Shown here piece after piece: positions 8,572 to 64,000 of a stretch of DNA of 64,000 nucleotides (positions within the stretch are counted from its first letter, which is position 1; each line of letters opens with the position of its first letter). A model generated the notes under the pieces. The model was given only the letters and a program-made list of their open reading frames with translations. It was not told the origin of the DNA and ran no database searches. The position numbers and the translations under genes were made by a program. This DNA is from a virus (Duplodnaviria; Caudoviricetes), in IMG/VR virus record IMGVR_UViG_2660238492_000006, positions 1-64,000 of that record; one strand, written 5' to 3'.

Positions 8572-8582
8572 ATAAATCACTC

Positions 8583-10471: not shown

Positions 10472-10769
10472 TTTCTACAACTTTATTTTTTTCTGTTTCT
10501 AAAATAGTTTTTTCTACATTAGTAACAGTAGTTTCATCTGTATTATCTAAGTATGTTTTTATATCATCTACTCTTGTATTTTTATCTCTTACAATTACTT
10601 TACTGTTTTCTGTATCTACAGAAACTAATTCTTTACCGTTCTCTATATCTGCAACTAAACAATTATAATTATCTTCTATACTAGTTCCAGACGTAGAAAA
10701 AATAATTTTTCCCAAAGAATTATATATTACTAAAGTTTTCATTTTTTCTATTCCTCCTACTCTCCCCAC
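10458..10769 (-). CDS. tail-fibre-associated/chaperone protein
   Basis: MKTLVIYNSLGKII; follows the fibre gene; near-identical to 50605..50916. Confidence 0.7.
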   Translation of the reverse strand: MGRVGGIEKMKTLVIYNSLGKIIFSTSGTSIEDNYNCLVADIENGKELVSVDTENSKVIVRDKNTRVDDIKTYLDNTDETTVTNVEKTILETEKNKVVENGGM

Positions 10770-11953: not shown

Positions 11954-12614
11954 TTATTTCTTTACCTCCTTCACATTTTATTGTGCTAACATGAATACCT
12001 TGTATAGTCATATTTGAATAAAAATTCATCGATAATCGTTCAATTGGATCAAAAGTCATTTTTATTGTTGAATGCTGCTGAACAGATACAACTATCCCTG
12101 AATAAGTATTAAATGTTATAGGAGTTTTACCTACATAATTAATTCTTACACCTTCTGGCTTCGGAACTATATATCCATGTTGAATTAAATCTTGTCTTAT
12201 TTGATTTACATATCCAGTAATATATGCTGTAAGGCTCATATCTTGATTATCTTGTATTTGAATACCTATGTCTTTGAATGTATTGTCCCAAATTTCATAT
12301 GCAGAAGGTATTTGCCCATTCCACATGTTCATTGCAACTTTAGCTTTTAAAACTAACCTATAGGTATTATCATCCATAATAGGATCATGCCCATTTAAAG
12401 GTTGAAAAGTTAATGTTCTTTGCCTTCCAATTGTTTGTCCGAGCATATCCAATTGTTTACCTATAGCATTATCTAAATCAAAATCATTATCCATATTTTT
12501 AGTCATAACATAAGCATGATCTATAATAGTTAAACTACTACTTAACCATGCTATAAATTTAGACTTATCTCTATGTTGAGATGTCACATTATTTAAATAT
12601 TTATCTATTGCCAT
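11940..12614 (-). CDS. DUF2612 baseplate protein
   Basis: FDLDNAIGKQLDMLG..IG..R, DD.TYRLVLKAK, PKPEGV. Confidence 0.8.
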   Translation of the reverse strand: MAIDKYLNNVTSQHRDKSKFIAWLSSSLTIIDHAYVMTKNMDNDFDLDNAIGKQLDMLGQTIGRQRTLTFQPLNGHDPIMDDNTYRLVLKAKVAMNMWNGQIPSAYEIWDNTFKDIGIQIQDNQDMSLTAYITGYVNQIRQDLIQHGYIVPKPEGVRINYVGKTPITFNTYSGIVVSVQQHSTIKMTFDPIERLSMNFYSNMTIQGIHVSTIKCEGGKEINGNI

Positions 12615-12624
12615 AAAATCACCT

Positions 12625-42300: not shown

Positions 42301-44595
42301 TTAGTGTGGTAATTTAGTAATAAATTTTGCATATCCATCATTACATTTTATAAGATTTAAACTATAGTATCTTTTTAGGTTTAATAGATCATCTAATTCG
42401 AAAGGTTCTAATTCTTGTTTTAACTCTAAATAATTATCTTTATTGCATCCTGCAATAAGCATATAGCTTGTATTAGCACTTTTTAATTCTGGTCTTATAT
42501 ATTTTATTTGCTCTAAACTATGACAGCTTATAATTGATTTTGCTGTTTTTTTAGCAATTTGATTAAGTTTAATTTTTAAAAATGTTTGGCAACAAGGGAC
42601 TTGATATAATTCATCAAAAAACAGATTTACTTTTACTCTATCTTCTTCTTTTAATATGCTATGCCTTTGTTGTAATGCTCCCCATATCTTATTAATCCAA
42701 TAAGTACAGTATACATCTTTTTCTTCATCTGTACTAAACATTGTTTCTTTCATTTTTAAACAAATAAGTTGATTCTTTTGCATTTCTTGTACTAGATTTA
42801 TATTATTGCTGCAATCTTTTTTTAACATTAATTCCATATAAACATTACTTTTAATAACATCCAATCTATTTAAAATTCCTTGAATATATGAAACCTTAGT
42901 ACCTACAACTTGTGGTTCTTTGGTTTTACACCAATCATCTAATTCTTGCAATGCTAATACATATTCTTCTAAGTTACTTCTTTGAGTAGATTGTATTTTA
43001 TCTATAAATTGCCTTCTAATTTTATAATCTTCTAATACATTAAATACATCTTTAATACTTCCGTTACTTATAAAGACAACTAAACTACTTGCTTTTAAAT
43101 ATCTATTCATACGTGGCTCTAATTCATTATCTATATTAATAGAATTAATAAAATTAACTAATTGTGCTGTTTGCATTTTAGCACTTTTATATACTTCAAA
43201 AGTATTATTACTATCTGCAAATATTTCATTAAAGCCTAATCCTTGTAATTCATCAAAATTTGAGCAATCAATATTTAATATTTTCTTTTTATCAATTGCA
43301 TAACTAACATCATTGGAAAACTCACACTCTCCACAAAAGTCAAATATTATTGAACACTCATTATTATCTATAGAATCTTTTACTAAATGTTTTAATAATG
43401 TAGTTTTTCCGCTTCTTGTAGGAGCAATAGCACATAATGTTAAATTCCTAAAATCCTTATCTGTACTTAAATATGCTTTTGAACTTTTCCCCTTACATAT
43501 ATTTGAACCTATACACATAGTTCCTTCCAACAACTCTACAGGAATTGGAGTTTCTGTTGTTTCTATATGATTTATTTTAAAATCTTTTAGTAGGTGATCT
43601 GCTGGTATCTGAATAAAATTTTGACATTCATCACTAGAGCACATATTTATATCTATTTTATAATCATAATCTTCTATGTTTATTGTTTTTTTAACTTTTT
43701 TATATATTAACTCATTATCCTCAGATAAGACATTATAAGATTGACATATACTTAAAGCGTTATTCTCTTGTCTAGTTTTATCAATGCTGTCTGAAATAAC
43801 TGCAATCTGAGTATTAATTATAGTAGCTTCTTTCTTTTTCTTTGTATTTTTAGATGTATCATTTTGTTGTCCTATAATAGACATAACATTTTTATACAAG
43901 CTTTCATTATCTTTATTAGTGTTTCCTCCTGTAAAGTCTTGTAATACTTCTAAAATGCAATCTAGTGTAGTTAAAACAGTACCTAAAATAGCCTTTAATA
44001 TATATTCAAAACTTGTTATTTTCTTTTCAAGTGGTTTATTATTCTTAACCTTATTTTCCATTTCTTCATAGCGTTCTTTCCAACCAATTTGGCGTATAGG
44101 CATAAAATTATAAGCTATTCTTAATCTATCTGTATCTTGCATTATATCCATTACATTTAAAATAGAATTTAATGGTTCATTATTTGTTTTATTTACATTC
44201 AGACTAAGCGCATCATCTTTTTTATAGTTTAATGAATAAGTAGTAGAATTTACTGAAAATGTTGGTATATCTTCTACTTCTTTTATAGTAGCTTTTGACC
44301 ATATTTCACTAATTTTTTCTAAAATTATAGATTTATAGATAACTGGAACTAAAAAATAGAAATTAGCATTATTCTTTTCTATATCAATAATATAAGATAT
44401 TTTAAAGTTAGTTTCTATAAATATCTTTTTTTGTTCCTTATGAACACGTTTATTAATGCTTTTATATGTGTGTGAAATAGCTTTGGCAATATTGCTTGAA
44501 TTATAATTCCTAATAGATCTGTGTGGTACTATTTGAATATATGTGTATGTTGGATTGATTAATTGAAAATAATTACTTAATTTTATAGCTTCCAT
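42301..44595 (-). CDS. large FtsK/HerA/VirB4-like P-loop ATPase
   Basis: Walker A APTRSGKT, IFDFCGE, Walker B LFFDE. Confidence 0.75.
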   Translation of the reverse strand: MEAIKLSNYFQLINPTYTYIQIVPHRSIRNYNSSNIAKAISHTYKSINKRVHKEQKKIFIETNFKISYIIDIEKNNANFYFLVPVIYKSIILEKISEIWSKATIKEVEDIPTFSVNSTTYSLNYKKDDALSLNVNKTNNEPLNSILNVMDIMQDTDRLRIAYNFMPIRQIGWKERYEEMENKVKNNKPLEKKITSFEYILKAILGTVLTTLDCILEVLQDFTGGNTNKDNESLYKNVMSIIGQQNDTSKNTKKKKEATIINTQIAVISDSIDKTRQENNALSICQSYNVLSEDNELIYKKVKKTINIEDYDYKIDINMCSSDECQNFIQIPADHLLKDFKINHIETTETPIPVELLEGTMCIGSNICKGKSSKAYLSTDKDFRNLTLCAIAPTRSGKTTLLKHLVKDSIDNNECSIIFDFCGECEFSNDVSYAIDKKKILNIDCSNFDELQGLGFNEIFADSNNTFEVYKSAKMQTAQLVNFINSINIDNELEPRMNRYLKASSLVVFISNGSIKDVFNVLEDYKIRRQFIDKIQSTQRSNLEEYVLALQELDDWCKTKEPQVVGTKVSYIQGILNRLDVIKSNVYMELMLKKDCSNNINLVQEMQKNQLICLKMKETMFSTDEEKDVYCTYWINKIWGALQQRHSILKEEDRVKVNLFFDELYQVPCCQTFLKIKLNQIAKKTAKSIISCHSLEQIKYIRPELKSANTSYMLIAGCNKDNYLELKQELEPFELDDLLNLKRYYSLNLIKCNDGYAKFITKLPH

Positions 44596-44792
44596 TATTT
44601 TAAACCTAATTTTAATGCTTGTAATAAAAAATTAATTGCAAAACTTATACTTGCAACTCTTCCTGCCTTCTTTTGTCCTGCCATATACAAGATTATAGCA
44701 ATCATGCAAACATACAAACATATCCAATAACTCATTCCTATAAATTCTAAAGCTGTAGATGTTCCTAATTTAATGAAAAAATTCTTAATCAT
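44595..44792 (-). CDS. small two-TM protein
   Basis: hydrophobic; coupled by TAATG overlaps. Confidence 0.7.
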   Translation of the reverse strand: MIKNFFIKLGTSTALEFIGMSYWICLYVCMIAIILYMAGQKKAGRVASISFAINFLLQALKLGLK

Positions 44793-45196
44793 TAAAATGC
44801 CTCCCTTACCAATCCAAACATATATGGCATTAAATATAAACTTGCATATATTAGAAGATATTTCATAATTATTTTTCCAATTTCTGCTGTATTATTTCCA
44901 CCTCGCATAGATGTTTTAACTATTTCAGCAAGTGCAGACAATAATGCAATCCAATACCCTACTCTTTGTAAAATATTTAAAAATGTATTTCCTAATTTAT
45001 CTACTGATTCTAAATCAACTGCTAAAACATGGGTAGGATTATTTATTAAAAATAATGTTGTTCCAATCCCTATTATTAATTCTTTTTTAAATCTTTTTCC
45101 ATCTTTTAATCCTAAATTTTCTAACTTTATATCTAATGTACTTTTGTTGTTATTTTTCCAATTTAAGTATTGTTCATGGTTCATTACTATTTCCAT
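44792..45196 (-). CDS. membrane protein, VirB2/pilin-like topology
   Basis: leader ending ...HVLA, followed by two hydrophobic helices. Confidence 0.6.
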   Translation of the reverse strand: MEIVMNHEQYLNWKNNNKSTLDIKLENLGLKDGKRFKKELIIGIGTTLFLINNPTHVLAVDLESVDKLGNTFLNILQRVGYWIALLSALAEIVKTSMRGGNNTAEIGKIIMKYLLIYASLYLMPYMFGLVREAF

Positions 45197-45260
45197 AAAA
45201 CCTCCGAATAAAAATTAATTGATTGGTTAAAATATAAATATTAAAAGGATGGTGATTAAA

Positions 45261-45338
45261 ATGACAATACCATTTGCAATTACAGTAGGATATACTATTG
45301 CATACGGAGTTGCTTGTTTTGCAGTTTATTTTTTATAA
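45261..45338 (+). CDS. 25-aa hydrophobic peptide (type I toxin-like)
   Basis: MTIPFAITVGYTIAYGVACFAVYFL; AAGGATGGTG RBS. Confidence 0.5.
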   Translation: MTIPFAITVGYTIAYGVACFAVYFL

Positions 45339-45482
45339 ATTTCTTAATATTTGTAACAATTAAATATATACTTGCATATACTTAACGTATACACGTATAC
45401 GAGAAGTTACTTAGCTATAGTCTACCAACAATTGGTAGACTTATTTTTTTTATAAAGAATATATAAATTTATATAAAATTAA

Positions 45483-45638
45483 CTATCTTTTCTCTTTTTC
45501 TTCTTGCTCCATTATATCTCTCAAAATTGATTTTATAAAAGCAGACTTATATTTATTTTTACAAATCCAATTATATAATTTTAAATCATCTATATCTTTT
45601 TTAAAACTTAATGGTATAAGTAACGGTTTATCACTCAT
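45483..45638 (-). CDS. small RHH-like protein (51 aa, not in track)
   Basis: LIPLSFKK...LKLYNWI...KSAFIKSILRDIM; AGGAGG RBS. Confidence 0.65.
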   Translation of the reverse strand: MSDKPLLIPLSFKKDIDDLKLYNWICKNKYKSAFIKSILRDIMEQEEKEKR

Positions 45639-45670
45639 AATTTACCTCCTATTTCTAATTATTTATAATA

Positions 45671-45699
45671 TATAGTATGTATAAGACTATATAAGTGTT
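45671..45699 (-). promoter_or_regulatory. sigma-K-like promoter
   Basis: AACA-N16-CATACTATA. Confidence 0.5.
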
Positions 45700-45859
45700 A
45701 CTATTTTTATATAACTTTATATATTTATTTATAATTTTAAGTGTATTGCTTACGCCTATACATTCATGATCTTAACTTCATTTTATTGTTTATTTATATG
45801 TATATTTGAGAATTACAAGAATTTTAGAATTATTATTGAATTTTGAATTAAGAAACGAA

Positions 45860-46620
45860 TACTGATTAAACCTGTGGACACGTTTTAGGGTATAGTTTAC
45901 CCTAAAAATATAGGATAAACAAAATATTACTGACATAACTGAATTGTATCTTAGTAACATTACCTACCTTGCCCTTCAAATGTACTTTAATAACTTACTA
46001 CTTGCCCATAAGCTACGATATTAAGAAATATCTTGTACAAGTTCCTGTCTTGCGACCAAGCGGACCACCCACATACACTTTTATTTATCTATCCTGTAGA
46101 TGTTGGGAGTGTTGTATCTTACCCAACTGACGACATGCTGCATATGGTAGGCAATGCATACACGCCGAGTTAATTAGTCGGAACTACCCGAGACGTTTAT
46201 TTAAAGTGTTTCTCCCCTATTCCACCAAACCTGTTCCCTAAAAAAGGTAACAAGAAATTAAGCCTATACACTTCCTTTTTTAAAAAAATTGTGATAAACT
46301 TAATCTATCGGGAATAAGTTTATCTTTTTAAGATAAAGAAAATATATAAGAATAATTAATCTATATTTAATTTTTAAATGAAGGTAATTGGTTGTTACCT
46401 TCATTTTTATTCTATAAAAACAAAAAAACTTTATCGGTACACACCAATAAAGTTATAAAAAATCTTATTTACATTTCACCTATCATTTGATATAATAAGG
46501 TCAGAAATAAGTCTTTCAGTTATAGCTTGTTTTGGTAGTTCGTGTACCATTCGAGTTCCTTTTATTAGAATTTCCGTTCTAATAAAGGTGAAAGGCTTTA
46601 TTTTTTTGTTTTTTTATTAT
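45860..46620 (-). ncRNA. putative long structured RNA / replication origin region
   Basis: no ORF in track, locally GC-richer, many hairpins, promoter TAGACT-17-TATAAT at 46655-46627. Confidence 0.55.
46503..46612 (+). ncRNA. putative ~110-nt antisense RNA
   Basis: promoter TTTACA-17-TGnTATAAT (46468-46496); three-stem fold; T-run end. Confidence 0.6.
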
Positions 46621-46637
46621 GTTTACATTATAATTCT

Positions 46638-46683
46638 TTTTTGTGGATAAGTCTACATTTTTTTATAAACTTATCCACAAAAA
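46638..46683. promoter_or_regulatory. inverted pair of perfect DnaA boxes, also the par operon terminator
   Basis: TGTGGATAA at 46642-46650 and TTATCCACA at 46671-46679. Confidence 0.7.
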
Positions 46684-46688
46684 GTATT

Positions 46689-47000
46689 TTAGTCTGTAAA
46701 TTCTAATGTGTCTAAACAATGTTGTATCATCATATTAATTAATTCATTTCTACTATATCCAGTTCTTTTAACTATTTTATCTAATTCTTTTTGTACTGCT
46801 CCATCTACATAAAGTGGAAATGATTTTCTTACGCTTTTATCCTCTTGTTTTTTCCCAATTTTAAATGCTATAGTATTTTCATTTAGTTCTTGATTTTCTT
46901 CTTTAATATCAATATTAGATATTGATTCTTGATTTTCCTTTTTAATGCTATTTTTTATATTATTTTTAAAATCATTTTTCATTTTAATATCACCTTTCAA
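46689..47000 (-). CDS. RHH centromere-binding partner of ParA (type Ib)
   Basis: C-terminal KSFPLYV....ELDKI...GYSRNELINMMI; downstream of parA. Confidence 0.7.
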   Translation of the reverse strand: MKGDIKMKNDFKNNIKNSIKKENQESISNIDIKEENQELNENTIAFKIGKKQEDKSVRKSFPLYVDGAVQKELDKIVKRTGYSRNELINMMIQHCLDTLEFTD

Positions 47001-47036
47001 TATGTAGTATTAATATTTAAAATTAATATTATATAT

Positions 47037-47789
47037 TTATTTCATTCTTTTTATGATTTCGTAATACAGATCTTTATAAGGTTCTGCATACTTTTTATTG
47101 TAATCTTGTATTGTTATATTTGATGCAACAGCTTCTTTATATTTTACACTATTATTTATAATTGTTTTGAATACATCTTCTGTAAGTTCTTCTGTTATAA
47201 CTTCATTTATTTGTTTTGAAAATATAGTCTTTTTATCAAAATTATTTCTTAATATTCCTAATAATTTTATATCTTCATTTACACGATTTTCTTTTATTGT
47301 CGTAACAAGATTATCAACTAAATTCAATCCTTGAAGTGCTGATGTAGAATTATCTATTACCTCTATGTAATAATTACTCATACACATAGCATTAGTTGTA
47401 CATAAACCTAAAAATGGTGAATTGTCTATTATTATTACATCATAATTATTCTTAAATTTTTCAAATTTATTTTTTAATATGGTTTCTCTTGTTATCTTAT
47501 TATGAAGTTCTGATTCTAAGACAGCACTTTCAATCGTGTTTGGTATTAAATCTATCATTTCATTGTATTGTGCTATACAATCCTTAAAATTCACTTTAGA
47601 ATTAGAATACAAATCATATAAATTATATTCAGCTTCAACATTTAAAATTTGACTTAAATTTGATTGGCTATCATTATCTATTAATAAAACTTTATGTCCT
47701 TGTTTTGCGAATTGTCCTGCTAAATTTACACAAGTAGTAGTCTTACCAACTCCTCCTTTAACATTTATTATTGATATAATATCGCACAT
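47037..47789 (-). CDS. parA: ParA/Soj partition ATPase
   Basis: KGGVGKTT, LLIDND.Q.N, YDVIIIDNSP. Confidence 0.9.
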   Translation of the reverse strand: MCDIISIINVKGGVGKTTTCVNLAGQFAKQGHKVLLIDNDSQSNLSQILNVEAEYNLYDLYSNSKVNFKDCIAQYNEMIDLIPNTIESAVLESELHNKITRETILKNKFEKFKNNYDVIIIDNSPFLGLCTTNAMCMSNYYIEVIDNSTSALQGLNLVDNLVTTIKENRVNEDIKLLGILRNNFDKKTIFSKQINEVITEELTEDVFKTIINNSVKYKEAVASNITIQDYNKKYAEPYKDLYYEIIKRMK

Positions 47790-53716: not shown

Positions 53717-54199
53717 CTAATCTATATCTACATAAAAGCTATCATCTTTATTTCCATAGATACTTTCTATAGTATAATTTATCTTATAACAGCTTTTTTC
53801 CAATTCAGTTGAAAAATTATTTATTCCAGTTACATAAATTCCATCCACTAAACAATCATGAAGCATTTGATATGCATAAATATCACCATTACTTTTACTT
53901 TTTCCTATAAGTTTATGAAGTTGACTTCCAAAATTCTTACTATAAATTAAGTAACCGTCTCCTGTAAAAGGATCTAATTTCTTGGTGTATATCGTTCTCC
54001 ATGCCTGTACTATCACTGCATCTAAACCTTCTACGATAATTGCTTTTTTATTTTCATCAAGTAATATTTCTCCTGTATCAAGATTTATTGCATAATCCTT
54101 TAATAATTTAATTTCTTTTTTCTTTGTTCTATTCATTGCTTTATTACTATAAAAATCTTCCGGGAAAAAACTCATTATCCAATCACCCCTAACACACAA
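53717..54199 (-). CDS. DUF2634/XkdS-like protein
   Basis: IVEG.DA, YS..FGS.L..LIG; synteny. Confidence 0.75.
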   Translation of the reverse strand: MCVRGDWIMSFFPEDFYSNKAMNRTKKKEIKLLKDYAINLDTGEILLDENKKAIIVEGLDAVIVQAWRTIYTKKLDPFTGDGYLIYSKNFGSQLHKLIGKSKSNGDIYAYQMLHDCLVDGIYVTGINNFSTELEKSCYKINYTIESIYGNKDDSFYVDID

Positions 54200-54528
54200 T
54201 ATTTTTGATATGTTTTTCCACTCTCATCATATCCAATTCCATAGCAAGCAACATTTGAACCAAGTTTTAACTTTGAATGGTGCTGAATAATTGAAATTGT
54301 ATGACTATGTTCATTATTTATACTAGTTTTTATATTTACCTCTTCATCCCATGCCAGCAAATAAGGATTTATATATAAATTGTTTCTATATAAAGGAAGA
54401 CCCTCCAGTTCTATAACTAAAGGGTCTAATGAAGTTACTTTTCCAACTTCAAAAGGTTCATCAATCATATTCTTTTTTTGTTGATTATCTATAACATTCC
54501 AAAATTCATCAAATGATGAAGCCATCAT
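54175..54528 (-). CDS. DUF2577/XkdR-like protein
   Basis: GKV.S.DPL.I; HSH motif. Confidence 0.7.
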   Translation of the reverse strand: MMASSFDEFWNVIDNQQKKNMIDEPFEVGKVTSLDPLVIELEGLPLYRNNLYINPYLLAWDEEVNIKTSINNEHSHTISIIQHHSKLKLGSNVACYGIGYDESGKTYQKYCVLGVIG

Positions 54529-54539
54529 ATCATCCCCTT

Positions 54540-55997
54540 TTACTTTAATGCATTTTTAGTTTTTAATATATTGTAGGCCTTTAATACTTTTGAAGCATAA
54601 TATTTCTTTTCGTTTGGATCCCAGTCTGAATTATTTGCCTTCACATAACTATATAGTGCATCTCCTAATTGCTTAACTGTTACAGTTGATGTATTATATC
54701 CATTTTGCTTACAAGAATTAAGAACAGTACCTTCACCACTGTTATAAGCAGAAAATATTACATGAGGTTGAATTCCTACAGCACTCATTTTTTGCTTATA
54801 CTCTTTTAATCCTTGCTCTATATTAGTAGCCGAATCAGACGATCCACCTTCAACTTGCATTAAACCATGATAAGTGTTTCCACAATAAGGATTCCCTTCA
54901 CTTTCTATTGCAATAATTGCAGCAGTAACATAAGCATCTATTTTATATGCATTAGATTTATTTATAATAATATCTTTAAAATTATATTTACTCATATTAG
55001 AAATAAATGTATTGCAATTACCTTCAACAGCAGTTAAATTACCCACATATTCGTCTGGAACACCTTCAATATTAATGTCTGCATATCCAGTTTTACTTGC
55101 TGGTATTACTCTTTTAACAGAATAAATATCTGTTCTTGTAACATCTACAGTTTTTACTACATCTCCAGTTCTTGGGGCATGAAGCATTTTATTATCACCA
55201 ATATAAACACTAACATGAGCTGGTGCTTGATAACTACCATTACCAATCCAAAATAATAAATCTCCTGGTTCCCAACTCTCTTTACTATTTTTATCAACCT
55301 CAGTTCCTTGTTTACATTGCTCATAAGTAGTCCAACCAAGTGTTAGTCCTAATTCTGCTTTGTATTGATTATAACAATATTCTACTAGGCCACTACAATC
55401 GAATGTATCTGCTCCATGTGCACCCCAAACATACGATTTGCCTTCTTGTTGTTTTAAAACAGAATAAATTTTTTCCCATAAAGCAGAACTTGAAGCTGAA
55501 TTTCCTTCTTCATCTTCATCCTCATATAAATCTGTCCATTCCATTTCATCCATAACACGTGATGGTGTTAATGTAAGTTTGCTTATAAATAAATTATTAG
55601 CTTTCCATTTATGTTCTACTTCTTTAATATACATAAAACAATCTTCATATCCTTTTAAAAATTGCGCAACTAAATGAACTCCAAAACCTACTCTATAGTC
55701 TATATTGCCTATACATTCTACTTCTATAGTTTCTTTAGGTTTGCAGTTCTCATTTAATAATCTTTTTGCTTTTAAAGTGGGATCTTCTTTCTTAGATTTA
55801 AAAATAATATCCTGTATAAGTCCATATTTTTTAATAATGCCACTAGGAGCTGTTAAAGTATTATTAATTGCTTTAGCTTCTTCACCAGTTGTTTCATCTG
55901 TCAAATTCTTTAATCCTAATAATTCATTTACTTTTTTAGTTCCTAATGTTTGTGCTTTTCCAATACTCATATGTTCAAGTTCAGGAGACTTAGCCAT
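54540..55997 (-). CDS. hub C-terminal half with NlpC/P60 and SLT-like domains
   Basis: YVWGA.G.DTFDCSGL, HV..YIG, HAP.TG; AIIAIES, GLMQV, AYNSG. Confidence 0.85.
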   Translation of the reverse strand: MAKSPELEHMSIGKAQTLGTKKVNELLGLKNLTDETTGEEAKAINNTLTAPSGIIKKYGLIQDIIFKSKKEDPTLKAKRLLNENCKPKETIEVECIGNIDYRVGFGVHLVAQFLKGYEDCFMYIKEVEHKWKANNLFISKLTLTPSRVMDEMEWTDLYEDEDEEGNSASSSALWEKIYSVLKQQEGKSYVWGAHGADTFDCSGLVEYCYNQYKAELGLTLGWTTYEQCKQGTEVDKNSKESWEPGDLLFWIGNGSYQAPAHVSVYIGDNKMLHAPRTGDVVKTVDVTRTDIYSVKRVIPASKTGYADINIEGVPDEYVGNLTAVEGNCNTFISNMSKYNFKDIIINKSNAYKIDAYVTAAIIAIESEGNPYCGNTYHGLMQVEGGSSDSATNIEQGLKEYKQKMSAVGIQPHVIFSAYNSGEGTVLNSCKQNGYNTSTVTVKQLGDALYSYVKANNSDWDPNEKKYYASKVLKAYNILKTKNALK

Positions 55998-56806
55998 TAT
56001 TCTTCACCACCTTCATCATCATCACCTTCAGCAGATTCTCCAATTTCTATATCTACTGGATTTCCTTTACTATCAAATAATTGTACTCTTGTAATCATAT
56101 CTGACATATCATTTCTATAACTTAGCGAAATCATTGTACCATCTGGATTAGGTAAAGATGGACTAGAGCATGGTCTAATTGTTTGCTTACTCCAATATCT
56201 ATCACATTCCATTAAGTTTACATTTCCTGCTACATCCATAAACATATAATAGTAAGTTCCGAACTGGTTGTGAGTTTCTGTTGCTATCATCATACAGGCA
56301 TCATAAGCACTTTTGTTTTTAACTAAGTGTTCTATATTTATTGATGCCCCTTCTCCATTAGGGCCACCTAAAATTCCATCTACTGAATATGGAATTTCTA
56401 AATCATTAAAGATTTTACATACAGCATCAAAAGCACTTATATTATTAAAATTATAGACAACCTTAGATTTAGTTAAATACCAGATAAAATCGTAACAAGT
56501 TAGTTCTAGTTCTTCTTTATCGGCCTTTAAATTAGAAGTTATTACTTTACCTTTAAAAATATTTCTACTGCCAACATAGATTTCTATTTTTTGCCCTGGT
56601 TCTATATAACGAGAAGGTAAATCACTATAAATTCCATAAGCTAATGTTACATCTACTTGTTGTGCTATTTTATCTAAACTACAAGTGTATTTTACATTTG
56701 TAATTAAATCATTTAAAATTCTAAAAGTACCATCATTTTCATAAATATAAACGCTTAATTCCATATGTAATATTCCTTTCTTTAAATTTAAGTATAAAAA
56801 TAACAC
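55997..56806 (-). CDS. XkdQ-like hub N-terminal half
   Basis: IF.G.V...TCYD..YL.KS; position after the LysM gene. Confidence 0.75.
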   Translation of the reverse strand: MLFLYLNLKKGILHMELSVYIYENDGTFRILNDLITNVKYTCSLDKIAQQVDVTLAYGIYSDLPSRYIEPGQKIEIYVGSRNIFKGKVITSNLKADKEELELTCYDFIWYLTKSKVVYNFNNISAFDAVCKIFNDLEIPYSVDGILGGPNGEGASINIEHLVKNKSAYDACMMIATETHNQFGTYYYMFMDVAGNVNLMECDRYWSKQTIRPCSSPSLPNPDGTMISLSYRNDMSDMITRVQLFDSKGNPVDIEIGESAEGDDDEGGEE

Positions 56807-56836
56807 CTAGGATTTCCTAAGTGTTTAAAAATTTTT

Positions 56837-57121
56837 CTATTTATTTTTACGCATTTCTTCTAGTAGTTCTACTTGTTTCTCTGTATTTTCAGCTATAATA
56901 GCAATACAACCAAATAAGGCTTTAACAGCTAAACCTAATATAAAAATAGAAATAGATCCAACTATCAATGCTATTGCTGTTCCTATATTTCCAGTTAAAA
57001 AAGAGCCAATCATTCCAATTATCATTACTATTGCAACAATATTAAACACAGTAGCAATATTTTCTCCTGATAATTTGGTTTTTCTTATTATGTCGTTTTT
57101 TTCAATATTATTATTGTCCAT
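56837..57121 (-). CDS. two-TM moron protein
   Basis: own TTGACA promoter (57178-57173) and downstream hairpin. Confidence 0.65.
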   Translation of the reverse strand: MDNNNIEKNDIIRKTKLSGENIATVFNIVAIVMIIGMIGSFLTGNIGTAIALIVGSISIFILGLAVKALFGCIAIIAENTEKQVELLEEMRKNK

Positions 57122-57178
57122 GTATATCCCCCTAAACAGTATATACTATAATTGTATATTATTAGAAAGTTTTGTCAA

Positions 57179-57892
57179 TCATCTTATCTTATAGCTTTTT
57201 CCTGCTATAACTACAGGAGTAGTAAGATTATTTAAGCTCATTATTGTTTTATAATATTCACTGCTTCCATAAAGTTTTTTAGCCATATCCTGTATAGATT
57301 CACCTGATTCAGGATAATAAATATCGCTAGGGTAATCTGTTGTTCCATTTTCTCCAGTTTCTAAACTTATTTTTTTATATTCTTGAAATTGTAGGTCATA
57401 ATATACATTTCCTATTCCATCTTTTCTACCATATTTAAAATTAGTTATTTGACAATAATAATAGTTCCCCCAAGTATTAAACATAAATACTAATGGTATT
57501 TGTTTATTTTTCCATTCTAATAATGTCGCACAATAAAAAGTATACGGATCTTCTGTACCACTAGATAAGTCAAAAGGATATTTCCATATAGAATAAGCTT
57601 TATTTTTATTATAACAAGCTTTATTACTTCTCTTTGGGAAAAAAGATGATATTGACCATTTTGCCAATTTTCTATTTATACTAATAGGTATCTCTCCATA
57701 ATTCATTAATTTTAATGTTTGGCTGTCTGAACTTTCATCAAACATTAAATCAGAAGGTGATACTGGCAAAAGAATAACTCTTTCTTCTACTGGTTTAGAA
57801 TTATCACTATCAACTCTTAAGCCATTCATATTTTCATAATGTTTCAATGTAGTGATTACTATTTGTGAATCATTTAGTGCATATTGTGCCAT
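57179..57892 (-). CDS. XkdP-like LysM tail protein
   Basis: LPV.P, SSFFP, YY.L...EY, C-terminal LysM-like segment. Confidence 0.8.
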   Translation of the reverse strand: MAQYALNDSQIVITTLKHYENMNGLRVDSDNSKPVEERVILLPVSPSDLMFDESSDSQTLKLMNYGEIPISINRKLAKWSISSFFPKRSNKACYNKNKAYSIWKYPFDLSSGTEDPYTFYCATLLEWKNKQIPLVFMFNTWGNYYYCQITNFKYGRKDGIGNVYYDLQFQEYKKISLETGENGTTDYPSDIYYPESGESIQDMAKKLYGSSEYYKTIMSLNNLTTPVVIAGKSYKIR

Positions 57893-57900
57893 AAAATCAC

Positions 57901-59853
57901 CTACTTTCTATTCTTTTGAGCTGCTTTTATAGAGTTCATTATCTCATCAAAATTATTAGCTTCTACTTTATGAATAGTTATATTATATTTAGCCTTATCA
58001 TCATTATTTATCTCATATTTTAATTTACTTTTTTCATCATCTGATAACTTATTATTTTTATCTATTGCAGTACTTGCATTTGCATCAGTTAATAGCTTAG
58101 GACCCATCATAGGATTATCACTGTATAAAAGCCATTTAGGAATTCCAAATTTATTGTTCAACCAATTTAGATCATTTTTATTTCTTTCTTGTCTATCTTC
58201 TGCTGTCATTTTAGTTCCTTTACTTCCAAGTATTCCATAATCAGTTTTTATTCCTAAAGCATTATATACCCAATCTAATTTTCCACTAAACCAATCACCA
58301 GTAGCATCTAACCAATTTCCTTGAGCAATATCTGCTCCAACTTGAAAATCTGTAGTTTTATTTATTACTTCATTTCCAACTACTTTTTCTACTAATGAAG
58401 GTAAGTTATCTATAAGTTTATCAAGTTGCCCACTGTTAACAAAATTATTAATTAAATTAGCTAAAGCACCTCCAATTTTTGTTATAGATTCAGCTACTTT
58501 ATTTATGGTATCAGGTTCTAATGCATCACTAAATGCGTTTGAAATTGATGTAAATACACTACCAAATGAATTTCCGATTGTTTCTAGACCCTTAACAGTA
58601 TTTGCATCCTCTAATTTATCTTTCAAATTATCAACCATTTCAGCAACAGCAGCAAAAACCCCACCTTCTTTTGCAGTACCATTAATAGTATCAATCCCCA
58701 TTATTTCGGATTTTAGATTTGCCCAAACCCCTTCTAATCTTTCTAATTTACCTTTAACTGATTTAGCATAAGTTTCAGCATAACCATTCATAGGAGATTG
58801 TTCGATATAGCTAGCGAGTAAATTAAAATATTTTTGGGGATCACCAGCTGTACCTTTTTTGCTTAATGCACCTTTAAGGGATTTGTATTCTTCAGGATTA
58901 GATTTTTTTAAACTGTCATAATGACTTTTAAGATTTTTATTATTTATTCCATACATTTGTAGCATGGCAATTCTACCTTCAATGGCTTCTTTAACTGCTA
59001 ATCCTATGTGGCTTGTTTCTACTTCATCTCTAGTACCTGCTACGTCTAAAAGCTTTTCTAATTGATCTCTTGTAGGGGTTATACTCATCTGCGCTAGTTT
59101 TGATGTAATATCTATTGTATCTGTTTCACTAGCATATGTTTTTTTTGCTTCATATGTTGCATTTTGATATGCTTCTAATCCTTTTTGTTCATCACCATAA
59201 AATAAATTAAGTTTCATTCTACCGGTTTCAAAATCCATGGATTCTTCAACAGCACTTTTAACTCCATCATAACTGAATAATCCATCAGATACTTTATTGA
59301 GTATTCCAAAACCTTGTTCCATCCAATTATTCATAGTTTTCATAACTGCAATACTTGCCGTAATGCCTGCACCTATAAGACCTAGTTTCCCTATTATTCC
59401 ACCAAACCCACTTTGCAAAAAGCTTTGTGCAAAATCTTTAAATCCATCAGAACCACCTGAGCCACCAGAACTAGAACCACCGCCACCATTCCATATATTA
59501 TTGGATTCGTGTTCAGCCTTTGAATATGCATCTTGTATATTCATTCCCAACTTTATATATTTCTGTGCTAGTCCTTCTATTGTTTTCTCTTGATTCTGTT
59601 TAACTCTATCATTTGCTTTATTAATTGCATCAGCAACACTATCACCTTTTTGAATAAACTTTTGTGCTATTTTATCAACTTGTTGGGAAGTTTTAGTTGT
59701 ATCATTTATTATTTTCTGATTACTATTAACAACACTACTAGCAAATTGTTCAAACTTAGTTTCTGATGCTAATATTCCATTTGCAAATCTTTGAAATGCA
59801 CTAGTATAGTTATCCTCAATTGACAGCCTACCACCTAATATGTTTTCTGCCAT
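57901..59853 (-). CDS. tape measure protein (phage B)
   Basis: length, composition and position after the chaperones. Confidence 0.8.
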   Translation of the reverse strand: MAENILGGRLSIEDNYTSAFQRFANGILASETKFEQFASSVVNSNQKIINDTTKTSQQVDKIAQKFIQKGDSVADAINKANDRVKQNQEKTIEGLAQKYIKLGMNIQDAYSKAEHESNNIWNGGGGSSSGGSGGSDGFKDFAQSFLQSGFGGIIGKLGLIGAGITASIAVMKTMNNWMEQGFGILNKVSDGLFSYDGVKSAVEESMDFETGRMKLNLFYGDEQKGLEAYQNATYEAKKTYASETDTIDITSKLAQMSITPTRDQLEKLLDVAGTRDEVETSHIGLAVKEAIEGRIAMLQMYGINNKNLKSHYDSLKKSNPEEYKSLKGALSKKGTAGDPQKYFNLLASYIEQSPMNGYAETYAKSVKGKLERLEGVWANLKSEIMGIDTINGTAKEGGVFAAVAEMVDNLKDKLEDANTVKGLETIGNSFGSVFTSISNAFSDALEPDTINKVAESITKIGGALANLINNFVNSGQLDKLIDNLPSLVEKVVGNEVINKTTDFQVGADIAQGNWLDATGDWFSGKLDWVYNALGIKTDYGILGSKGTKMTAEDRQERNKNDLNWLNNKFGIPKWLLYSDNPMMGPKLLTDANASTAIDKNNKLSDDEKSKLKYEINNDDKAKYNITIHKVEANNFDEIMNSIKAAQKNRK

Positions 59854-59865
59854 ATACCTCCCTCC

Positions 59866-60084
59866 TTATTTCTTTTTCGCATATGGGTTAGCTAATTTTC
59901 CTGTGTATTCTGCTAACGCTATGTTATTATCAGTTTCTTGTTTCTTCATCAATAGCATACTTTCTATCATAAATGTTTTTTCTAATTCAGATAAATTACA
60001 TAATTCTTTTAAAGTATGTCCGTGCTGAAGATAGTGAGATATCATATAAAGTTCTATATCTATCTCTTTACCATCTTCGGACAT
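59866..60084 (-). CDS. tail chaperone frameshift partner
   Basis: in the -1 frame from A AAA AAC at 60096-60090. Confidence 0.7.
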   Translation of the reverse strand: MSEDGKEIDIELYMISHYLQHGHTLKELCNLSELEKTFMIESMLLMKKQETDNNIALAEYTGKLANPYAKKK

Positions 60085-60086
60085 TA

Positions 60087-60485
60087 TTAGTTTTTTATTT
60101 CTTCACTTTCCTTCATGAACATTTCTTGTGGATCTAATTTACTTAAACCATTTAATTTATTTAAAAGCTCTGTTATTGCAAATATTTGATTTTCCCTAGG
60201 AAACAATCTTTCTACTATATTTAAAGAGTTAGTTGTGCATCCATAAGCTTCTAACAATTTGGGATCTCTTAATGAATCTATACTCATATATATCATTTTA
60301 TAAGTTCCTCTTTTTGCATCTTTTTTCATTTCAGCTCTAACATCTGCTAAATCACCTTTTGAAAGAGAATGTGCTTCAAACTCTCCCTTAAGTTTTTCGC
60401 AGTGTATCATTCCTCTTTGTTCTTTTGCTTCTTCTTTTAATTCTTCTTTTTTAGATATAATATCCTCTATAGTTAATAATGCCAT
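60087..60485 (-). CDS. XkdN-like tail assembly chaperone
   Basis: L.DP.L..AYGC; ends EEIKN. Confidence 0.8.
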   Translation of the reverse strand: MALLTIEDIISKKEELKEEAKEQRGMIHCEKLKGEFEAHSLSKGDLADVRAEMKKDAKRGTYKMIYMSIDSLRDPKLLEAYGCTTNSLNIVERLFPRENQIFAITELLNKLNGLSKLDPQEMFMKESEEIKN

Positions 60486-60538
60486 GTATAATCATCCTTT
60501 CAATTTAAAATTAAAAGGTAGAGCATTAAAATTTTACT

Positions 60539-61000
60539 CTACCAATCTTCTCCATCATCTATAATATTAGTATAATTACTATTCTCAATCATGAATCCTG
60601 CTTCAAAACTATCTTCTCCAAAATCATTTTCACTTGCTAATTTCATTAATACTGTTTTCCCTTTTATCCATGCTTTTGTTATAGCAATACTCTCTTCTTC
60701 TTCTCCATTAGGAGTATAATTTGTAGCTTCAAAATCAAAGACAAAATTTTGTAGCTTTTTAGCAGCTTCTAAAATTGCTGGTTTAAATCTGCTGTATCTT
60801 TTATTTAGTTTAAATGCTATAGTACATTTGTAACTCATTGTCACTTCTGCATCTGTAGCACTATTCATTAATGGCAAGTTCTTAGTATTAGGTTCAACGC
60901 TAATTTCACATTCTTTTAATTCAGCTAATTCAATACCATTTATTTTCATGTACCCCTTATTGGTTCTAACAACATCATAAGGATTTAATTGTTGGCTCAT
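60539..61000 (-). CDS. tail tube (XkdM-like)
   Basis: follows the sheath gene; size and sequence fit. Confidence 0.75.
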   Translation of the reverse strand: MSQQLNPYDVVRTNKGYMKINGIELAELKECEISVEPNTKNLPLMNSATDAEVTMSYKCTIAFKLNKRYSRFKPAILEAAKKLQNFVFDFEATNYTPNGEEEESIAITKAWIKGKTVLMKLASENDFGEDSFEAGFMIENSNYTNIIDDGEDW

Positions 61001-61015
61001 TCAATTCACTCCTTT

Positions 61016-62101
61016 CTAAGTTTCATATTGTAGACAAATATGAATGTCTTCAATACAATCCATAATTTTTAATGTAATTTTTATAAATACATAACTTCCT
61101 GTTTTAGCTTTTAAAACTTCTTCATCTTTCATTTCATCAGTATTAATGCCTTTACTTTCTAAATATTTTCTAGTAGCTTCAGCATCTAATTCAGCAAAAG
61201 ATTCTTCATCATTACTTAAGTAACCTTCATTACTTAAAGTTCTTAAATAAGAGTTCAGCTCATTTATCAATGTTTTTCTATTTTTATATGAGTTTCCTAT
61301 TTTGCCTAAATAGTGTGATTCAAATATTTTATTAGAATCTGATTTCACAAGATCCATAGTTTCAACAATTCTTATTTTAGATAATGCTTCTGATTGTGTA
61401 TTTTCGATAACTTCAAGTGAATTTACACCTCTTGAGTAAACAATGTTAGTACCATTGTTATATAAAAATAATTCCCCATTAGATACACACTCATTGTTGT
61501 CTACTTTCACATCACAACTTTTTACATTCTTTGCAATGTGGTTTGTAACAGCTTCATTTGCGCCCAAAGTACATAATGTAGCTGCTGTTTGTATTGTATA
61601 TTCTTCTGGAGAAATATCCCCTAAGTCTTTTCCAGTAAAATTTACTATCCCTTCAAAATTACTTTTATAATTGTAGAGTACAGCTTTTATTTGATAGTCT
61701 TCTTCTTTTCTTTGAGATTTAATAAAATCTGCTACCTTCTTTTTATCCTCATCTGTTTTAATTTGTGGTACTGCCAACCATCCATTTTCATTTACTTTAT
61801 TAAGTAATGATAATGATTTATCTAGAGAACCAGTTAATCCACTTTCAGCGTGTCCAACAGATACTATTAATGTTTTAACTCCATAATCAGCGAAAATTGT
61901 ACTTATAAGAGATTTATTCTTTTCTTCATATTTTTCAACAACTTTTTTTAATTTGGAATATTGATATACTCCTGAAGTTACAGTTGGATCATCTAGAATT
62001 AGAAAAAGCACTCCATGCTTTGCTCTAATATTGGCTGTCTCTGCTAATGCCTGTACTGTAAATTTAGTACCATGCATAGTATTACTTGTTGCCATACACA
62101 T
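61016..62101 (-). CDS. tail sheath (XkdK-like)
   Basis: RGVNSL, KIRIVE.MD, Y.GK..N.Y.N. Confidence 0.85.
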   Translation of the reverse strand: MCMATSNTMHGTKFTVQALAETANIRAKHGVLFLILDDPTVTSGVYQYSKLKKVVEKYEEKNKSLISTIFADYGVKTLIVSVGHAESGLTGSLDKSLSLLNKVNENGWLAVPQIKTDEDKKKVADFIKSQRKEEDYQIKAVLYNYKSNFEGIVNFTGKDLGDISPEEYTIQTAATLCTLGANEAVTNHIAKNVKSCDVKVDNNECVSNGELFLYNNGTNIVYSRGVNSLEVIENTQSEALSKIRIVETMDLVKSDSNKIFESHYLGKIGNSYKNRKTLINELNSYLRTLSNEGYLSNDEESFAELDAEATRKYLESKGINTDEMKDEEVLKAKTGSYVFIKITLKIMDCIEDIHICLQYET

Positions 62102-62151
62102 CTCTCCTTTCTAATTTTGTGCATAAAAATAAGACCAGTTATAACTAGTCC

Positions 62152-62595
62152 TTAATCACTAATATTTAGTTTTAATATTCCCATAAGCTTATCATAAGTT
62201 GCATCTGGAGTTTCTGGAACAGGTTCAGCTTTTCCATCATAAAAGTTTAGAGTCATCATAAAATTAAGACAATCTTCATTATAATTTATATCTTTATTAA
62301 GTATAGGTAACATCCTTGACTTAACACATATATGTTCATCAAACAATTCAGTTAAATCATCAATCATTTTTAAAGAATTTTCTTGTGTTTTAATATCTTC
62401 CACAAAGGTTATATAGATATTACAAAGTTTCTTTCTAAAATTAAAATGATTGGTGCTTTTTAGTGGTTTAATTTTAATACTAAATGTTGGAATGATTATC
62501 TCTTTTTTATTATCATCAATAAATATATTATTTTTAGGAAACCTATCTTTTAATGTTTTACATACACTATATAAAAGCTCCACATTTTCAATCAT
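62152..62595 (-). CDS. tail terminator protein
   Basis: synteny; P.F.I motif. Confidence 0.65.
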   Translation of the reverse strand: MIENVELLYSVCKTLKDRFPKNNIFIDDNKKEIIIPTFSIKIKPLKSTNHFNFRKKLCNIYITFVEDIKTQENSLKMIDDLTELFDEHICVKSRMLPILNKDINYNEDCLNFMMTLNFYDGKAEPVPETPDATYDKLMGILKLNISD

Positions 62596-63029
62596 TTAAA
62601 TGTATCACCTATCTTTCTTCTTAACTTTTCTGGTAATTCAGATTGTACTATGATTAAGCTATCTCTTACTGTATGCTTTCCTGGTACAAACTCTTTAACA
62701 AGCTTTTTACCAATAGAAGGAACATATTTTCCTACTTCTTGTTTATGACCGTTCTCATAAGCATCAGCATAAGGTGCTTGATTTGAGTCATATCCAACTT
62801 TAATAGAATGAATGTTATTTTCTATTTCAATTTTCCCACTAGTTGCAGATCTTCTTAAGTTTCCTGTTTTTACTGAGGTTCTAGCTTGAATTTCAGCAAC
62901 ACCTTCTATTGAACCTTCCATTAATGTATCATCTATAACATTATTTAATTGTTGTTTAGCGAAATTAATTTTACTTATGAACTCATTGAAACCAAAAGTA
63001 CTACTCATTATTCTCAACCTCAGTTTCAA
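62592..63029 (-). CDS. HK97 gp10-like protein
   Basis: VKTGNLRRS, YA...E.GH.Q..G.YVP.IGK.L. Confidence 0.8.
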   Translation of the reverse strand: MKLRLRIMSSTFGFNEFISKINFAKQQLNNVIDDTLMEGSIEGVAEIQARTSVKTGNLRRSATSGKIEIENNIHSIKVGYDSNQAPYADAYENGHKQEVGKYVPSIGKKLVKEFVPGKHTVRDSLIIVQSELPEKLRRKIGDTFK

Positions 63030-63357
63030 TAATCTTTATATCTTCTTTAGTTTCTAGTATCATCAAATCTAAATAATCATCCCATTCAATTATTTTTTGT
63101 ATAGAATAAAACTTATTTCTATAACCAATAACAGCACTTTCAGTTATTTCGCTATAAATATCAGAAAAAACTCTTTTAGTACACTCAATGTCATATCCAT
63201 AATCTTTTTTACATTTCTCAGCAGAATAAGGTTGTACATCCACCAAGTAAGGTGCATTACATGCATTTATATAGCCATCACGTGTTATTTTGTGTTCATC
63301 TTCATAAGGTCTATAGGTATAAATATTTATCTCTTTATCGTAGTACATAATCACCAC
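63001..63357 (-). CDS. head-tail adaptor/closure protein
   Basis: DVQPYS.E....DYG, Y.I.KI.EWD. Confidence 0.7.
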   Translation of the reverse strand: MVIMYYDKEINIYTYRPYEDEHKITRDGYINACNAPYLVDVQPYSAEKCKKDYGYDIECTKRVFSDIYSEITESAVIGYRNKFYSIQKIIEWDDYLDLMILETKEDIKIIETEVENNE

Positions 63358-63635
63358 ACCTTAAAATTAATTGGATTAGGCAATAAAGCCTTAATATCTT
63401 CTGTTATCACCCAAGCTTCAATATTATCCATAAAAGTAGTACTTCTATCACCTTGACTTTGTGATATAACTCCAACGCTTTCTTTAGTCTTTTCAATTTT
63501 TTTAGAATTTTTAATAAGCTGCTCTACTGCAAATGAATAATTAGTTAGAATATATTCATTAGTCCATTTGGAATTATTAAATACTTTAAGATATTTTTTT
63601 ATAATAAAAATAGCTTTTTCTTGATCTTTATCCAT
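63351..63635 (-). CDS. head-tail connector (gp6-like)
   Basis: S.SQG.RS.TF...IKALLP.P. Confidence 0.75.
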   Translation of the reverse strand: MDKDQEKAIFIIKKYLKVFNNSKWTNEYILTNYSFAVEQLIKNSKKIEKTKESVGVISQSQGDRSTTFMDNIEAWVITEDIKALLPNPINFKVW

Positions 63636-63646
63636 AGGTGTATCAC

Positions 63647-63904
63647 CTACTTTCTAAAATTATTTATTATAAAATTAATCAATTCATCTTTTCCTAACTT
63701 GCTATATCCTTCTAAATTATTATCTTTGCAAATATTCTTTAACTGATCCATTGTCATATTCATTAGTTCTTCTTGATTGAAGGTTTCCATATCATTATTT
63801 TCTGTTTTTTCTTCAACTATCTTAAAACCTAAAGAAACAAGCTTTTCAGCCTGTTCCTCAGTACTTACAATCTTTTGAACATTCATATTTTCAAGCTTTA
63901 TCAT
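63647..63904 (-). CDS. Rho-N-domain protein
   Basis: MT..QLK.IC....L.GYSKL.KDELI. Confidence 0.75.
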   Translation of the reverse strand: MIKLENMNVQKIVSTEEQAEKLVSLGFKIVEEKTENNDMETFNQEELMNMTMDQLKNICKDNNLEGYSKLGKDELINFIINNFRK

Positions 63905-63914
63905 TCAATCACTC

Positions 63915-64000
63915 CTATGCCTTAGCTTGCTTAATGCTTACATGTGATGCTTTAATTTTTTCATCTGTAATCCATAAATCATGATACTTTCTATAAGCAA
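63915..64000 (-). CDS. C-terminus of major capsid protein (partial)
   Basis: YRKYHDLWI...; runs off the window edge. Confidence 0.65.
   Translation of the reverse strand, partial: AYRKYHDLWITDEKIKASHVSIKQAKA

Follow-up and report, generated by a model that had tools for sequence, protein, structure and literature searches.

A gene-free kilobase of the clostridial phage-plasmid pCBI encodes a structured RNA and a small antisense RNA and is a probable plasmid replicon

How is pCBI, a circular phage-like plasmid of 40,142 bp from Clostridium botulinum 202F, replicated in its plasmid state? The plasmid corresponds (99.9-100% identity) to positions 13731-53875 of the stretch analyzed here, which comprises 64,000 nucleotides (positions 1 to 64,000 of IMG/VR virus record IMGVR_UViG_2660238492_000006) and is referred to as the window. 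Its phage-like plasmid family is already in print (PMC9202375, and also PMC4824171 in its available part). A scan of 32 of the 62 annotated pCBI coding sequences (18-35 kb of the plasmid) detected no plasmid Rep family. Beside the partition operon, ~1,050 nucleotides (45639-46688) separate a ribbon-helix-helix (RHH)-like gene from an open reading frame (ORF) of 51 amino acids (aa) at 45483-45638 on the minus strand, and all ORFs inside this region are of 56 aa or fewer. The absence of genes from this kilobase had been recognized in a reading made from the DNA letters alone (the sequence-only reading), which proposed a ColE1-like replicon without a Rep protein. We found that the kilobase encodes two conserved RNAs, and that the small one and the 3′ end of the long one are seen again in clostridial plasmids for which no rep gene is annotated, likewise in regions free of ORFs. 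We consider it probable that the gene-free kilobase is the plasmid-mode replicon and copy control of pCBI, and about an even call that RNA is the effector of this replication and copy-control module without any dedicated protein. The two RNAs are located as follows.

45864-46262, minus strand: structured core RNA of ~400 nucleotides (covariation, GNRA loop, strand asymmetry)
46501-46619, plus strand: countertranscript-type small RNA, complementary to the 5′ part of the sense transcript and folding into two hairpins within a closing stem, followed by a U tail (fold and covariance model)

Is the long RNA real, and on which strand does it lie? The GC content reaches 40-46% around positions 46000-46250 as opposed to ~20% in the flanks, and the minus strand of this block is G-rich, just as the sequence-only reading had described. 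Core homologs amounted to 18 distinct sequences of three subtypes before the addition of the plasmid p5BKT015925, and relatives are found in 7 of 124 Clostridium species genomes, in IMG/VR and metagenome contigs, in a Clostridium perfringens plasmid and in p5BKT015925. Among 61 viral and metagenome loci fetched by pattern, 13 passed the profile at E < 1e-10. The 18-mer matches in Bacteroidota and Pectobacterium genomes (6 of 8 loci) and most of 54 metagenome pattern matches were set aside as chance. In the alignment of 15 sequences, the core with its pseudoknot has 41 base pairs, and 95.1% of the cells are paired, compared with 81.2 ± 1.0% in shuffled alignments, none of 500 of which reaches the observed value. 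Changes on both sides of the pair are seen in 23 of the 41 pairs, and slid controls pair at 45% or less; covariation among homologs, which had been named in advance as a check on the proposed RNA, is therefore present. The elements of the core include a hairpin at 46233-46251, a GNRA hairpin at 46047-46056, and a hairpin at 46139-46158 whose loop pairs with 45960-45968 to form the pseudoknot.

The strand of the core RNA is evident from several comparisons. The GNRA loop (GCAA, GAAA, or GGAA) of one covarying hairpin is found in all 15 sequences on the minus strand and in none on the plus strand. In strand-neutral helices, 22 cells can pair on the minus strand only, whereas 1 can pair on the plus strand only (G.U vs. 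A.C). Similarly, the consensus fold is −32.2 kcal/mol on the minus strand and −13.2 kcal/mol on the plus strand, and the single-sequence z-scores are −5.1 and −2.2, respectively. The GC-rich block is thus a real structured RNA on the minus strand, the strand to which the sequence-only reading had assigned it. A core RNA on the plus strand, which we had favored first for the promoter at 45836-45863 and the plus-strand terminators, is rejected on the 22:1 ratio of cells and the 15:0 distribution of the GNRA loop. With the structure on the minus strand, the conserved promoter of the plus strand is antisense to the RNA and lies at its 3′ end. The TTG of its −35 box is kept in 14 of 17 sequences and positions 2, 4, and 6 of its −10 box are at least 90% conserved, with a variable spacer of 16 nucleotides.

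Both RNA families appear to be undescribed. The core shows no conserved ORF in the alignment, and its start codons are not conserved. Rfam gave no match at the gathering score in the 64-kb window, chance-level matches alone at E ≤ 10 in 45200-47050, and none at E ≤ 0.1 in 15 related loci, so that the comparison suggested beforehand with ARRPOF, ROOL, and known countertranscript RNAs (ctRNA) did not bring a family to light. Nothing was found by ARAGORN, and a phage collection held no match to 45700-46700. Neither RNA is described in the literature consulted on pCBI and strain 202F, p5BKT015925, pCBM588, pCB102 and repH, and structured RNAs of Clostridium prophages, a body of work that leaves aside supplements and the original pCB102 and pLS20 replicon papers.

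Does the small RNA belong to a family of its own? It folds with a minimum free energy of −32.1 kcal/mol (z = −6.2) into the closing stem and two inner hairpins that had been proposed for an RNA of ~110 nucleotides. It is complementary to the 5′ part of the minus-strand transcript, again as proposed, lying inside the transcript predicted from the promoter at 46655-46627. The TTGGTAG motif pointed out by the sequence-only reading is also present, in the first hairpin (46532-46538), and occurs in 3 of 11 aligned family members. A covariance model (R1) built from nine other sequences, with the window excluded, matched 46501-46619 over its full length (34.3 bits, E = 7.4e-4 in 150 kb). Furthermore, the small RNA aligns with small RNAs just upstream of the core in type C relatives, with compensatory changes at 14 of 20 pairs. 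The window sequence therefore belongs to a countertranscript family. Its members were identified in the genomes of 18 of 124 Clostridium species, as a rule on small contigs (21 of 23 matches lie below position 12,100, and most of the contigs bear high numbers), and in the intergenic DNA of 29 Clostridium plasmids. Two copies of the family can be found within one ORF-free gap of p5BKT015925 (locus L096, 5583-5681 and 6033-6128).

How would the two RNAs be controlled? The signals of the gene-free region are listed below.

46627-46655, minus strand: predicted sense promoter, TAGACT-17-TATAAT, with its start near 46620 (score 10/12)
46638-46683, no strand: inverted repeat with 18-nucleotide arms (46638-46655 and 46666-46683, 94% complementary), each with a perfect TTATCCACA, overlapping the −35 box and spacer of the sense promoter
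46468-46496, plus strand: predicted promoter of the small antisense RNA, TTTACA-17-TGnTATAAT (11/12 with TG)
46415-46454, minus strand: predicted sense-strand intrinsic terminator (attenuator), a 12-bp stem (46427-46454) followed by a U run, with a like terminator in 10 of 10 loci
46376-46411, plus strand: predicted intrinsic terminator, a 13-bp stem followed by a T run, which would halt antisense transcripts crossing the core (terminator scan)
45836-45863, plus strand: conserved sigma-A promoter in antisense orientation, directly adjoining the core at its 3′ end, TTGAAT-16-AATACT (TTGACT-16-TATACT in relatives), identified by alignment and also seen in pCBM588

Both convergent promoters named in the sequence-only reading are present, including the extended −10 box of the plus-strand one. 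Its hairpins at 46427-46454 and 46376-46406 are present as well, but they score as intrinsic terminators, of the minus and the plus strand, respectively. Three terminator-like sites were found in total, compared with 0.3 ± 0.6 expected. A sense-strand terminator of −12 to −23 kcal/mol is located 78-162 nucleotides past the complement of the small RNA 5′ end in all 10 loci that have the small RNA, and in the window this terminator is at 46454-46427. The elements follow the order of sense promoter, small-RNA target, terminator, core RNA, and antisense promoter. Since a terminator stands beyond the target in 10 of 10 loci, the control layout resembles the attenuation of pT181 and pIP501 rather than the control of ColE1, and by this analogy it can be described as antisense attenuation with an RNA standing where the rep gene would be. 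An uninterrupted RNA II, running from the promoter through the hairpins to the G-rich block, is not what the terminator would allow. The ColE1-like replicon of the sequence-only reading thus survives as a replicon-like unit with a long RNA on the minus strand and a small antisense RNA, but not in its ColE1 layout, and it has no Rfam match.

Plus-strand promoters are similarly placed just outside the 5′ end of the core in 12 of 16 related loci, where the window enters the count with a different and weaker site (46328-46356). Plus-strand terminators of differing sequence are found at the same place in five of the six type A sequences scanned (window/L001, L006, L020, L005, L035, and L021), and none in L032. 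In the type B relatives L078 and L052, a plus-strand hairpin with a U run is located within the core, ~60-68 nucleotides from its 3′ end and a short distance past the antisense promoter, and would give an antisense RNA of ~55 nucleotides; no such unit was seen on reading types A and C. The inverted repeat over the sense promoter is probably an operator. The perfect TTATCCACA 9-mers, which are DnaA boxes, occur only twice in the 64-kb window, as the two arms of this one palindrome.

We propose the following mechanism. A sense transcript would start at ~46620 from a promoter covered by the operator-like palindrome, and over its first ~110 nucleotides it would be exactly complementary to a small antisense RNA present in abundance (46501-46619). 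About 50 nucleotides past the target of the small RNA, the transcript would encounter the strong terminator (46454-46427), and pairing with the small RNA would set the fraction of transcripts that stop there, by analogy with pT181 and pIP501. Transcripts that read through would give the pseudoknotted RNA of ~400 nucleotides (46262-45864), which would be the controlled product instead of a Rep protein. This RNA may then act at the origin, by serving as a primer or by opening or marking the origin. The antisense promoter at the 3′ end of the core would send transcripts back across the core, to stop at the plus-strand terminator (46376-46411). Of these steps, we infer attenuation, the action at the origin, and that no protein initiator is required.

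What links the module to replication? A circular mobilizable plasmid of ~6.1 kb, with an end overlap of 46 bp, carries the core and has no Rep family by Pfam or NCBIfam. In p5BKT015925 (12.4 kb), the core is matched at E = 1.3e-15 in a gap of 1.8 kb, and no replication or segregation genes are annotated for the p5BKT015925 plasmid group in the available part of its description (PMC4177856). The core is the only element common to these two small circular plasmids. Similarly, the small RNA is located in ORF-free gaps, 0.5-2.5 kb long, of pCLJ2, pBOT3502, pCBM588, and pCDC3875, none of which has a MOB-suite replicon type. In pBOT3502 the gap is 0.5 kb, within a largely ORF-free stretch of ~1.6 kb that is broken by an ORF of 63 aa. 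Six of the seven clostridial carrier records fetched have no replicon type. The genes directly before the core always serve maintenance (parA/RHH, parM/parR, resolvase, relaxase, or tyrosine recombinase), and one carrier is a circular phage-like element of 40 kb with an end overlap of 127 bp. Both RNAs, conserved in strand and structure, are in this way linked to plasmids without a recognizable rep gene.

Two of these plasmids show further features. In pCDC3875, a member of the small-RNA family (4372-4496, E = 1.2e-5) lies in an ORF-free gap of 2.5 kb next to parM (locus L095, 4331-6862) and is followed by a block of 550 nucleotides with 38-44% GC that is unmatched by the core model and may be a second class of core RNA. 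In the 16-kb plasmid pBOT3502 (locus L100, 1-3585), which has no rep gene, the small-RNA module is accompanied by a full gene for the DNA polymerase III alpha subunit.

A link to a working replicon is provided by pCBM588. Its gap holds an unannotated ORF of 105 aa with 7 Arg, 23 Lys, 10 Cys, and CxxC pairs, whose composition fits RepH of the minimal pCB102 replicon, a protein of 104 aa with 7 Arg, 22 Lys, and 10 Cys (PMC4383383, available part). According to the same part of that paper, the pCB102 fragment replicates autonomously, transcription reading into the replicon leads to plasmid loss, and the authors doubt that RepH is a protein and suggest an RNA-based mechanism. A copy of the small RNA is present in pCBM588 (locus L099, 5782-5880; E = 9.4e-7), and downstream of the RepH-like ORF a weak match to the 3′ domain of the core is followed by an antisense promoter, TTGACT-16-TATACT.

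These results suggest that the gene-free kilobase of pCBI serves replication, and we tentatively advance a more specific possibility: a family of clostridial theta replicons without a Rep protein, in which an RNA of ~400 nucleotides, released past an attenuator set by the countertranscript, starts replication as a primer or as an origin-opening RNA. Several observations weigh against the proposed replication and copy-control module, in whole or in part. The small-RNA family is present at 6 of 17 core-bearing loci, and the other loci have a different plus-strand promoter-terminator unit at that place. The strong terminator (46454-46427) separates the sense promoter from the core, and a simple fold of the sense leader revealed no anti-terminator, the terminator being retained at minimum energy. 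Promoter-like sites taken together are no more frequent than expected by chance (17 found vs. 15.8 ± 4.4 expected), so that a single promoter carries weight only if it is conserved. The six other clostridial modules have no DnaA boxes, which are unique to pCBI; the box that the sequence-only reading saw in the spacer of the sense promoter does exist and overlaps the −35 box and spacer, but it is not conserved, and we have dropped DnaA boxes as a family trait. pCBM588 matches the core only weakly (E = 0.048), and a typed replicon, rep_cluster_1519, is present in the C. perfringens carrier. Furthermore, RepH, a protein family of 165-201 aa described below, and ORFs of 196 and 418 aa could be unrecognized initiators, and pCBI itself encodes a replisome organizer or DnaD-like loader (PF09681, E = 7.7e-29) together with a single-stranded DNA-binding protein (SSB), which could serve plasmid replication.

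Finally, one copy of the core is chromosomal and follows an integrase in a defective phage-like island beside yebC (loci L027 and L103, G076:C1 ~1141000-1160000). This island comprises the integrase, the core RNA, a 2-kb ORF-poor stretch, and genes for head scaffold, major head, terminase, and a portal split by a transposase; 389 nucleotides are all that it shares with pCBI. Defective phage-like islands need a replicon of their own after excision, and the chromosomal copy therefore weighs little.

Could a protein initiate replication instead? The module would then be a control region and origin, with initiation by the replisome organizer in pCBI and by RepH or the 165-201-aa proteins in the small plasmids, and the RNAs would only set the copy number or form a leader. 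We regard this as rather unlikely. It gains from the presence of the organizer and SSB in pCBI, from the RepH-like ORF with CxxC pairs in pCBM588, and from the fact that an attenuator of the pT181 or pIP501 kind classically sits upstream of a rep gene and has rep mRNA as its controlled product. A shared family of 165-201 aa, unplaced by MOB-suite and Pfam, adjoins the module in four of five small plasmids; two of its members show weak N-terminal helix-turn-helix signals and two show weak C-terminal RHH or antitoxin-like signals. On the other hand, a covarying RNA and no ORF is what follows the attenuator in the window, p5BKT015925, and the 6.1-kb plasmid, and the last of these lacks the 165-201-aa protein. 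A tblastn search of all related loci, the core-bearing ones included, and of the window detected no RepH homolog besides pCBM588 itself at E < 7, and the replisome organizer is encoded 6 kb from the module, in the phage early region. The sequence-only reading, which had allowed pCBI no Rep gene but only the organizer, is borne out as far as the scanned coding sequences go, but pCBI is not strictly initiator-less because the organizer is present.

A job other than replication is also to be considered for the core, as a large structured RNA of mobile elements that acts in prophage maintenance, immunity, or counter-defense within a self-contained, antisense-regulated cassette beside par or int genes. 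Its occurrence in unrelated elements that share nothing else, such as the chromosomal island with its 389 nucleotides in common with pCBI, and in the C. perfringens plasmid with a typed replicon would fit such a role, as would the 11 of 17 core loci without the plasmid small-RNA family. The GNRA loops and pseudoknot also recall ROOL and GOLLD, ornate phage-borne RNAs of unknown function according to the available part of PMC12286853. This explanation too seems unlikely to us: the core is the sole common element of two small circular rep-less plasmids, the countertranscript family associated with it is typical of plasmid gaps, its 3′ domain (by the weak match) and antisense promoter recur in a proven replicon, and no Rfam family matches it.

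The literal ColE1 model, in which one unbroken RNA II would run from 46620 into the G-rich block, its hybrid would be cut by RNase H for Pol I, and RNA I would block its folding, is improbable. The geometry and sizes are similar, with an antisense RNA of ~110 nucleotides over the 5′ end of an RNA of several hundred nucleotides, and the sense strand is G-rich. The model does not accommodate the intrinsic terminator at 46454-46427, kept in 10 of 10 loci; there is no Rfam match, and the conserved antisense promoter at the 3′ end is not known to have a ColE1 counterpart. Of the primer and copy-control pair in the style of RNA II and RNA I that the sequence-only reading had inferred, a role in replication is likely, but ColE1 control is not supported and protein-free RNA priming is a hypothesis. 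A type I toxin-antitoxin or other addiction cassette of overlapping sense and antisense RNAs is very improbable, for although convergent overlapping transcripts adjoin the partition genes and an ORF of 24 codons is readable by eye in the sense leader, the leader peptide is not hydrophobic, the core has neither a conserved ORF nor conserved start codons, and its structure covaries as RNA.

The module is preceded by the partition operon, of which parA is the first gene and at the end of which the module lies.

47037-47789, minus strand: parA, partition ATPase (Pfam AAA_31, 1.5e-44, and CbiA, 9e-23; phrog_164 ParA-like, 3e-53)
46689-47000, minus strand: protein of 103 aa after parA with a weak C-terminal RHH signal (Pfam RHH_1, E = 0.047, and NCBIfam BrnA antitoxin, E = 0.0039, both below cut-off), by its position and signal probably a centromere or operator binder

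On the other side of the module, positions 45262-45450 hold an ORF of 25 codons for a very hydrophobic peptide with a good ribosome-binding site, followed by short palindromes and a plus-strand terminator (45419-45441). This stretch looks like a type I toxin-like or small-RNA unit, with a weak RprA-like Rfam match (E = 1.9). Further away (42301-45196), two small membrane-like proteins (134 and 65 aa) precede a P-loop protein of 764 aa (phrog_5156, 4.3e-91) to which neither Pfam nor NCBIfam assigns a family. The record extends past the 40-kb pCBI unit on both sides (window 1-13730 and 53876-64000), and positions 7635-13800 show 74% likeness to another C. botulinum plasmid. The record, of 89,678 bases, carries a provirus classification and may combine two elements.

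Many clostridial plasmids and phage-plasmids, including those of toxin-forming species, have no recognizable replication gene, and the pCB102 replicon is used in standard Clostridium vectors although its mechanism is unexplained. If the proposed mechanism holds, it would account at once for the pCB102 vector replicon, for the "rep-less" plasmids found in several C. botulinum groups, and for how pCBI-type phage-plasmids exist as plasmids, and it would be the first ColE1-like solution outside enterobacteria, with a different control logic. If the long RNA itself starts replication, Gram-positive anaerobes would join the hosts of RNA-primed plasmid replication without Rep. The two conserved RNAs, neither of them in Rfam, and the fixed terminator that separates them constitute a concrete and testable model, and both RNAs can serve as sequence markers for typing replicons that current tools leave untyped.

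How does the module compare with known systems? As in ColE1, the module seems to have no dedicated Rep, and an antisense RNA of ~110 nucleotides covers the 5′ end of a sense RNA that is long and structured. The window differs in the terminator between leader and body and in the antisense promoter at the 3′ end, there is no similarity in sequence or through Rfam, and the hosts here are Gram-positive anaerobes; the unit is not a member of the ColE1 family. In pT181, pIP501, and pAMbeta1, a countertranscript likewise pairs with the leader and a terminator lies just past the target, as in the 10 loci here, but the controlled product there is rep mRNA, whereas a covarying RNA and no ORF of more than 56 aa is found in 45639-46688. 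None of the countertranscript families in Rfam matches the small RNA of the window, and no alternative anti-terminator fold was found here.

Gene-free origins are known from other plasmids. According to the available part of PMC8557374, oripLS20 of the Bacillus plasmid pLS20 is ~1.1 kb long, has no typical rep gene, lies beside an actin-like partition operon, and holds DnaA boxes. In pBatNRS213, of the pLS20 family (locus L097, 400-1050), the ORF-free, rep-less origin includes a block of 41-49% GC and terminator-like hairpins, and this block may also encode a structured RNA. The core model has no match in pBatNRS213 1-1500 (nhmmer --max, E ≤ 100), and oripLS20 differs from the clostridial modules in this lack of similarity and in its DnaA boxes, which are not a family trait of the latter. 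Similarly, the ARRPOF motif of the Fusobacterium plasmid pKH9 is a structured non-coding element in a 1-kb gene-free region sufficient for replication (PMC5737381, available part), and it differs in that Rfam gives no match in the window or the 15 related loci. The oripLS20 and pKH9/ARRPOF regions are analogs, not homologs.

The closest known relative is the pCB102 replicon from Clostridium butyricum, the Gram-positive replicon of the pMTL83xxx shuttle vectors. It differs, as seen in pCBM588, in having the Lys- and Cys-rich ORF of 105 aa where the window has the 5′ and central domains of the covarying RNA. The remaining arrangement is alike: a member of the small-RNA family lies upstream, a strong sense terminator follows its target, and there is a GC-richer region with a weakly similar 3′ domain and the TTGACT-16-TATACT antisense promoter at its end.

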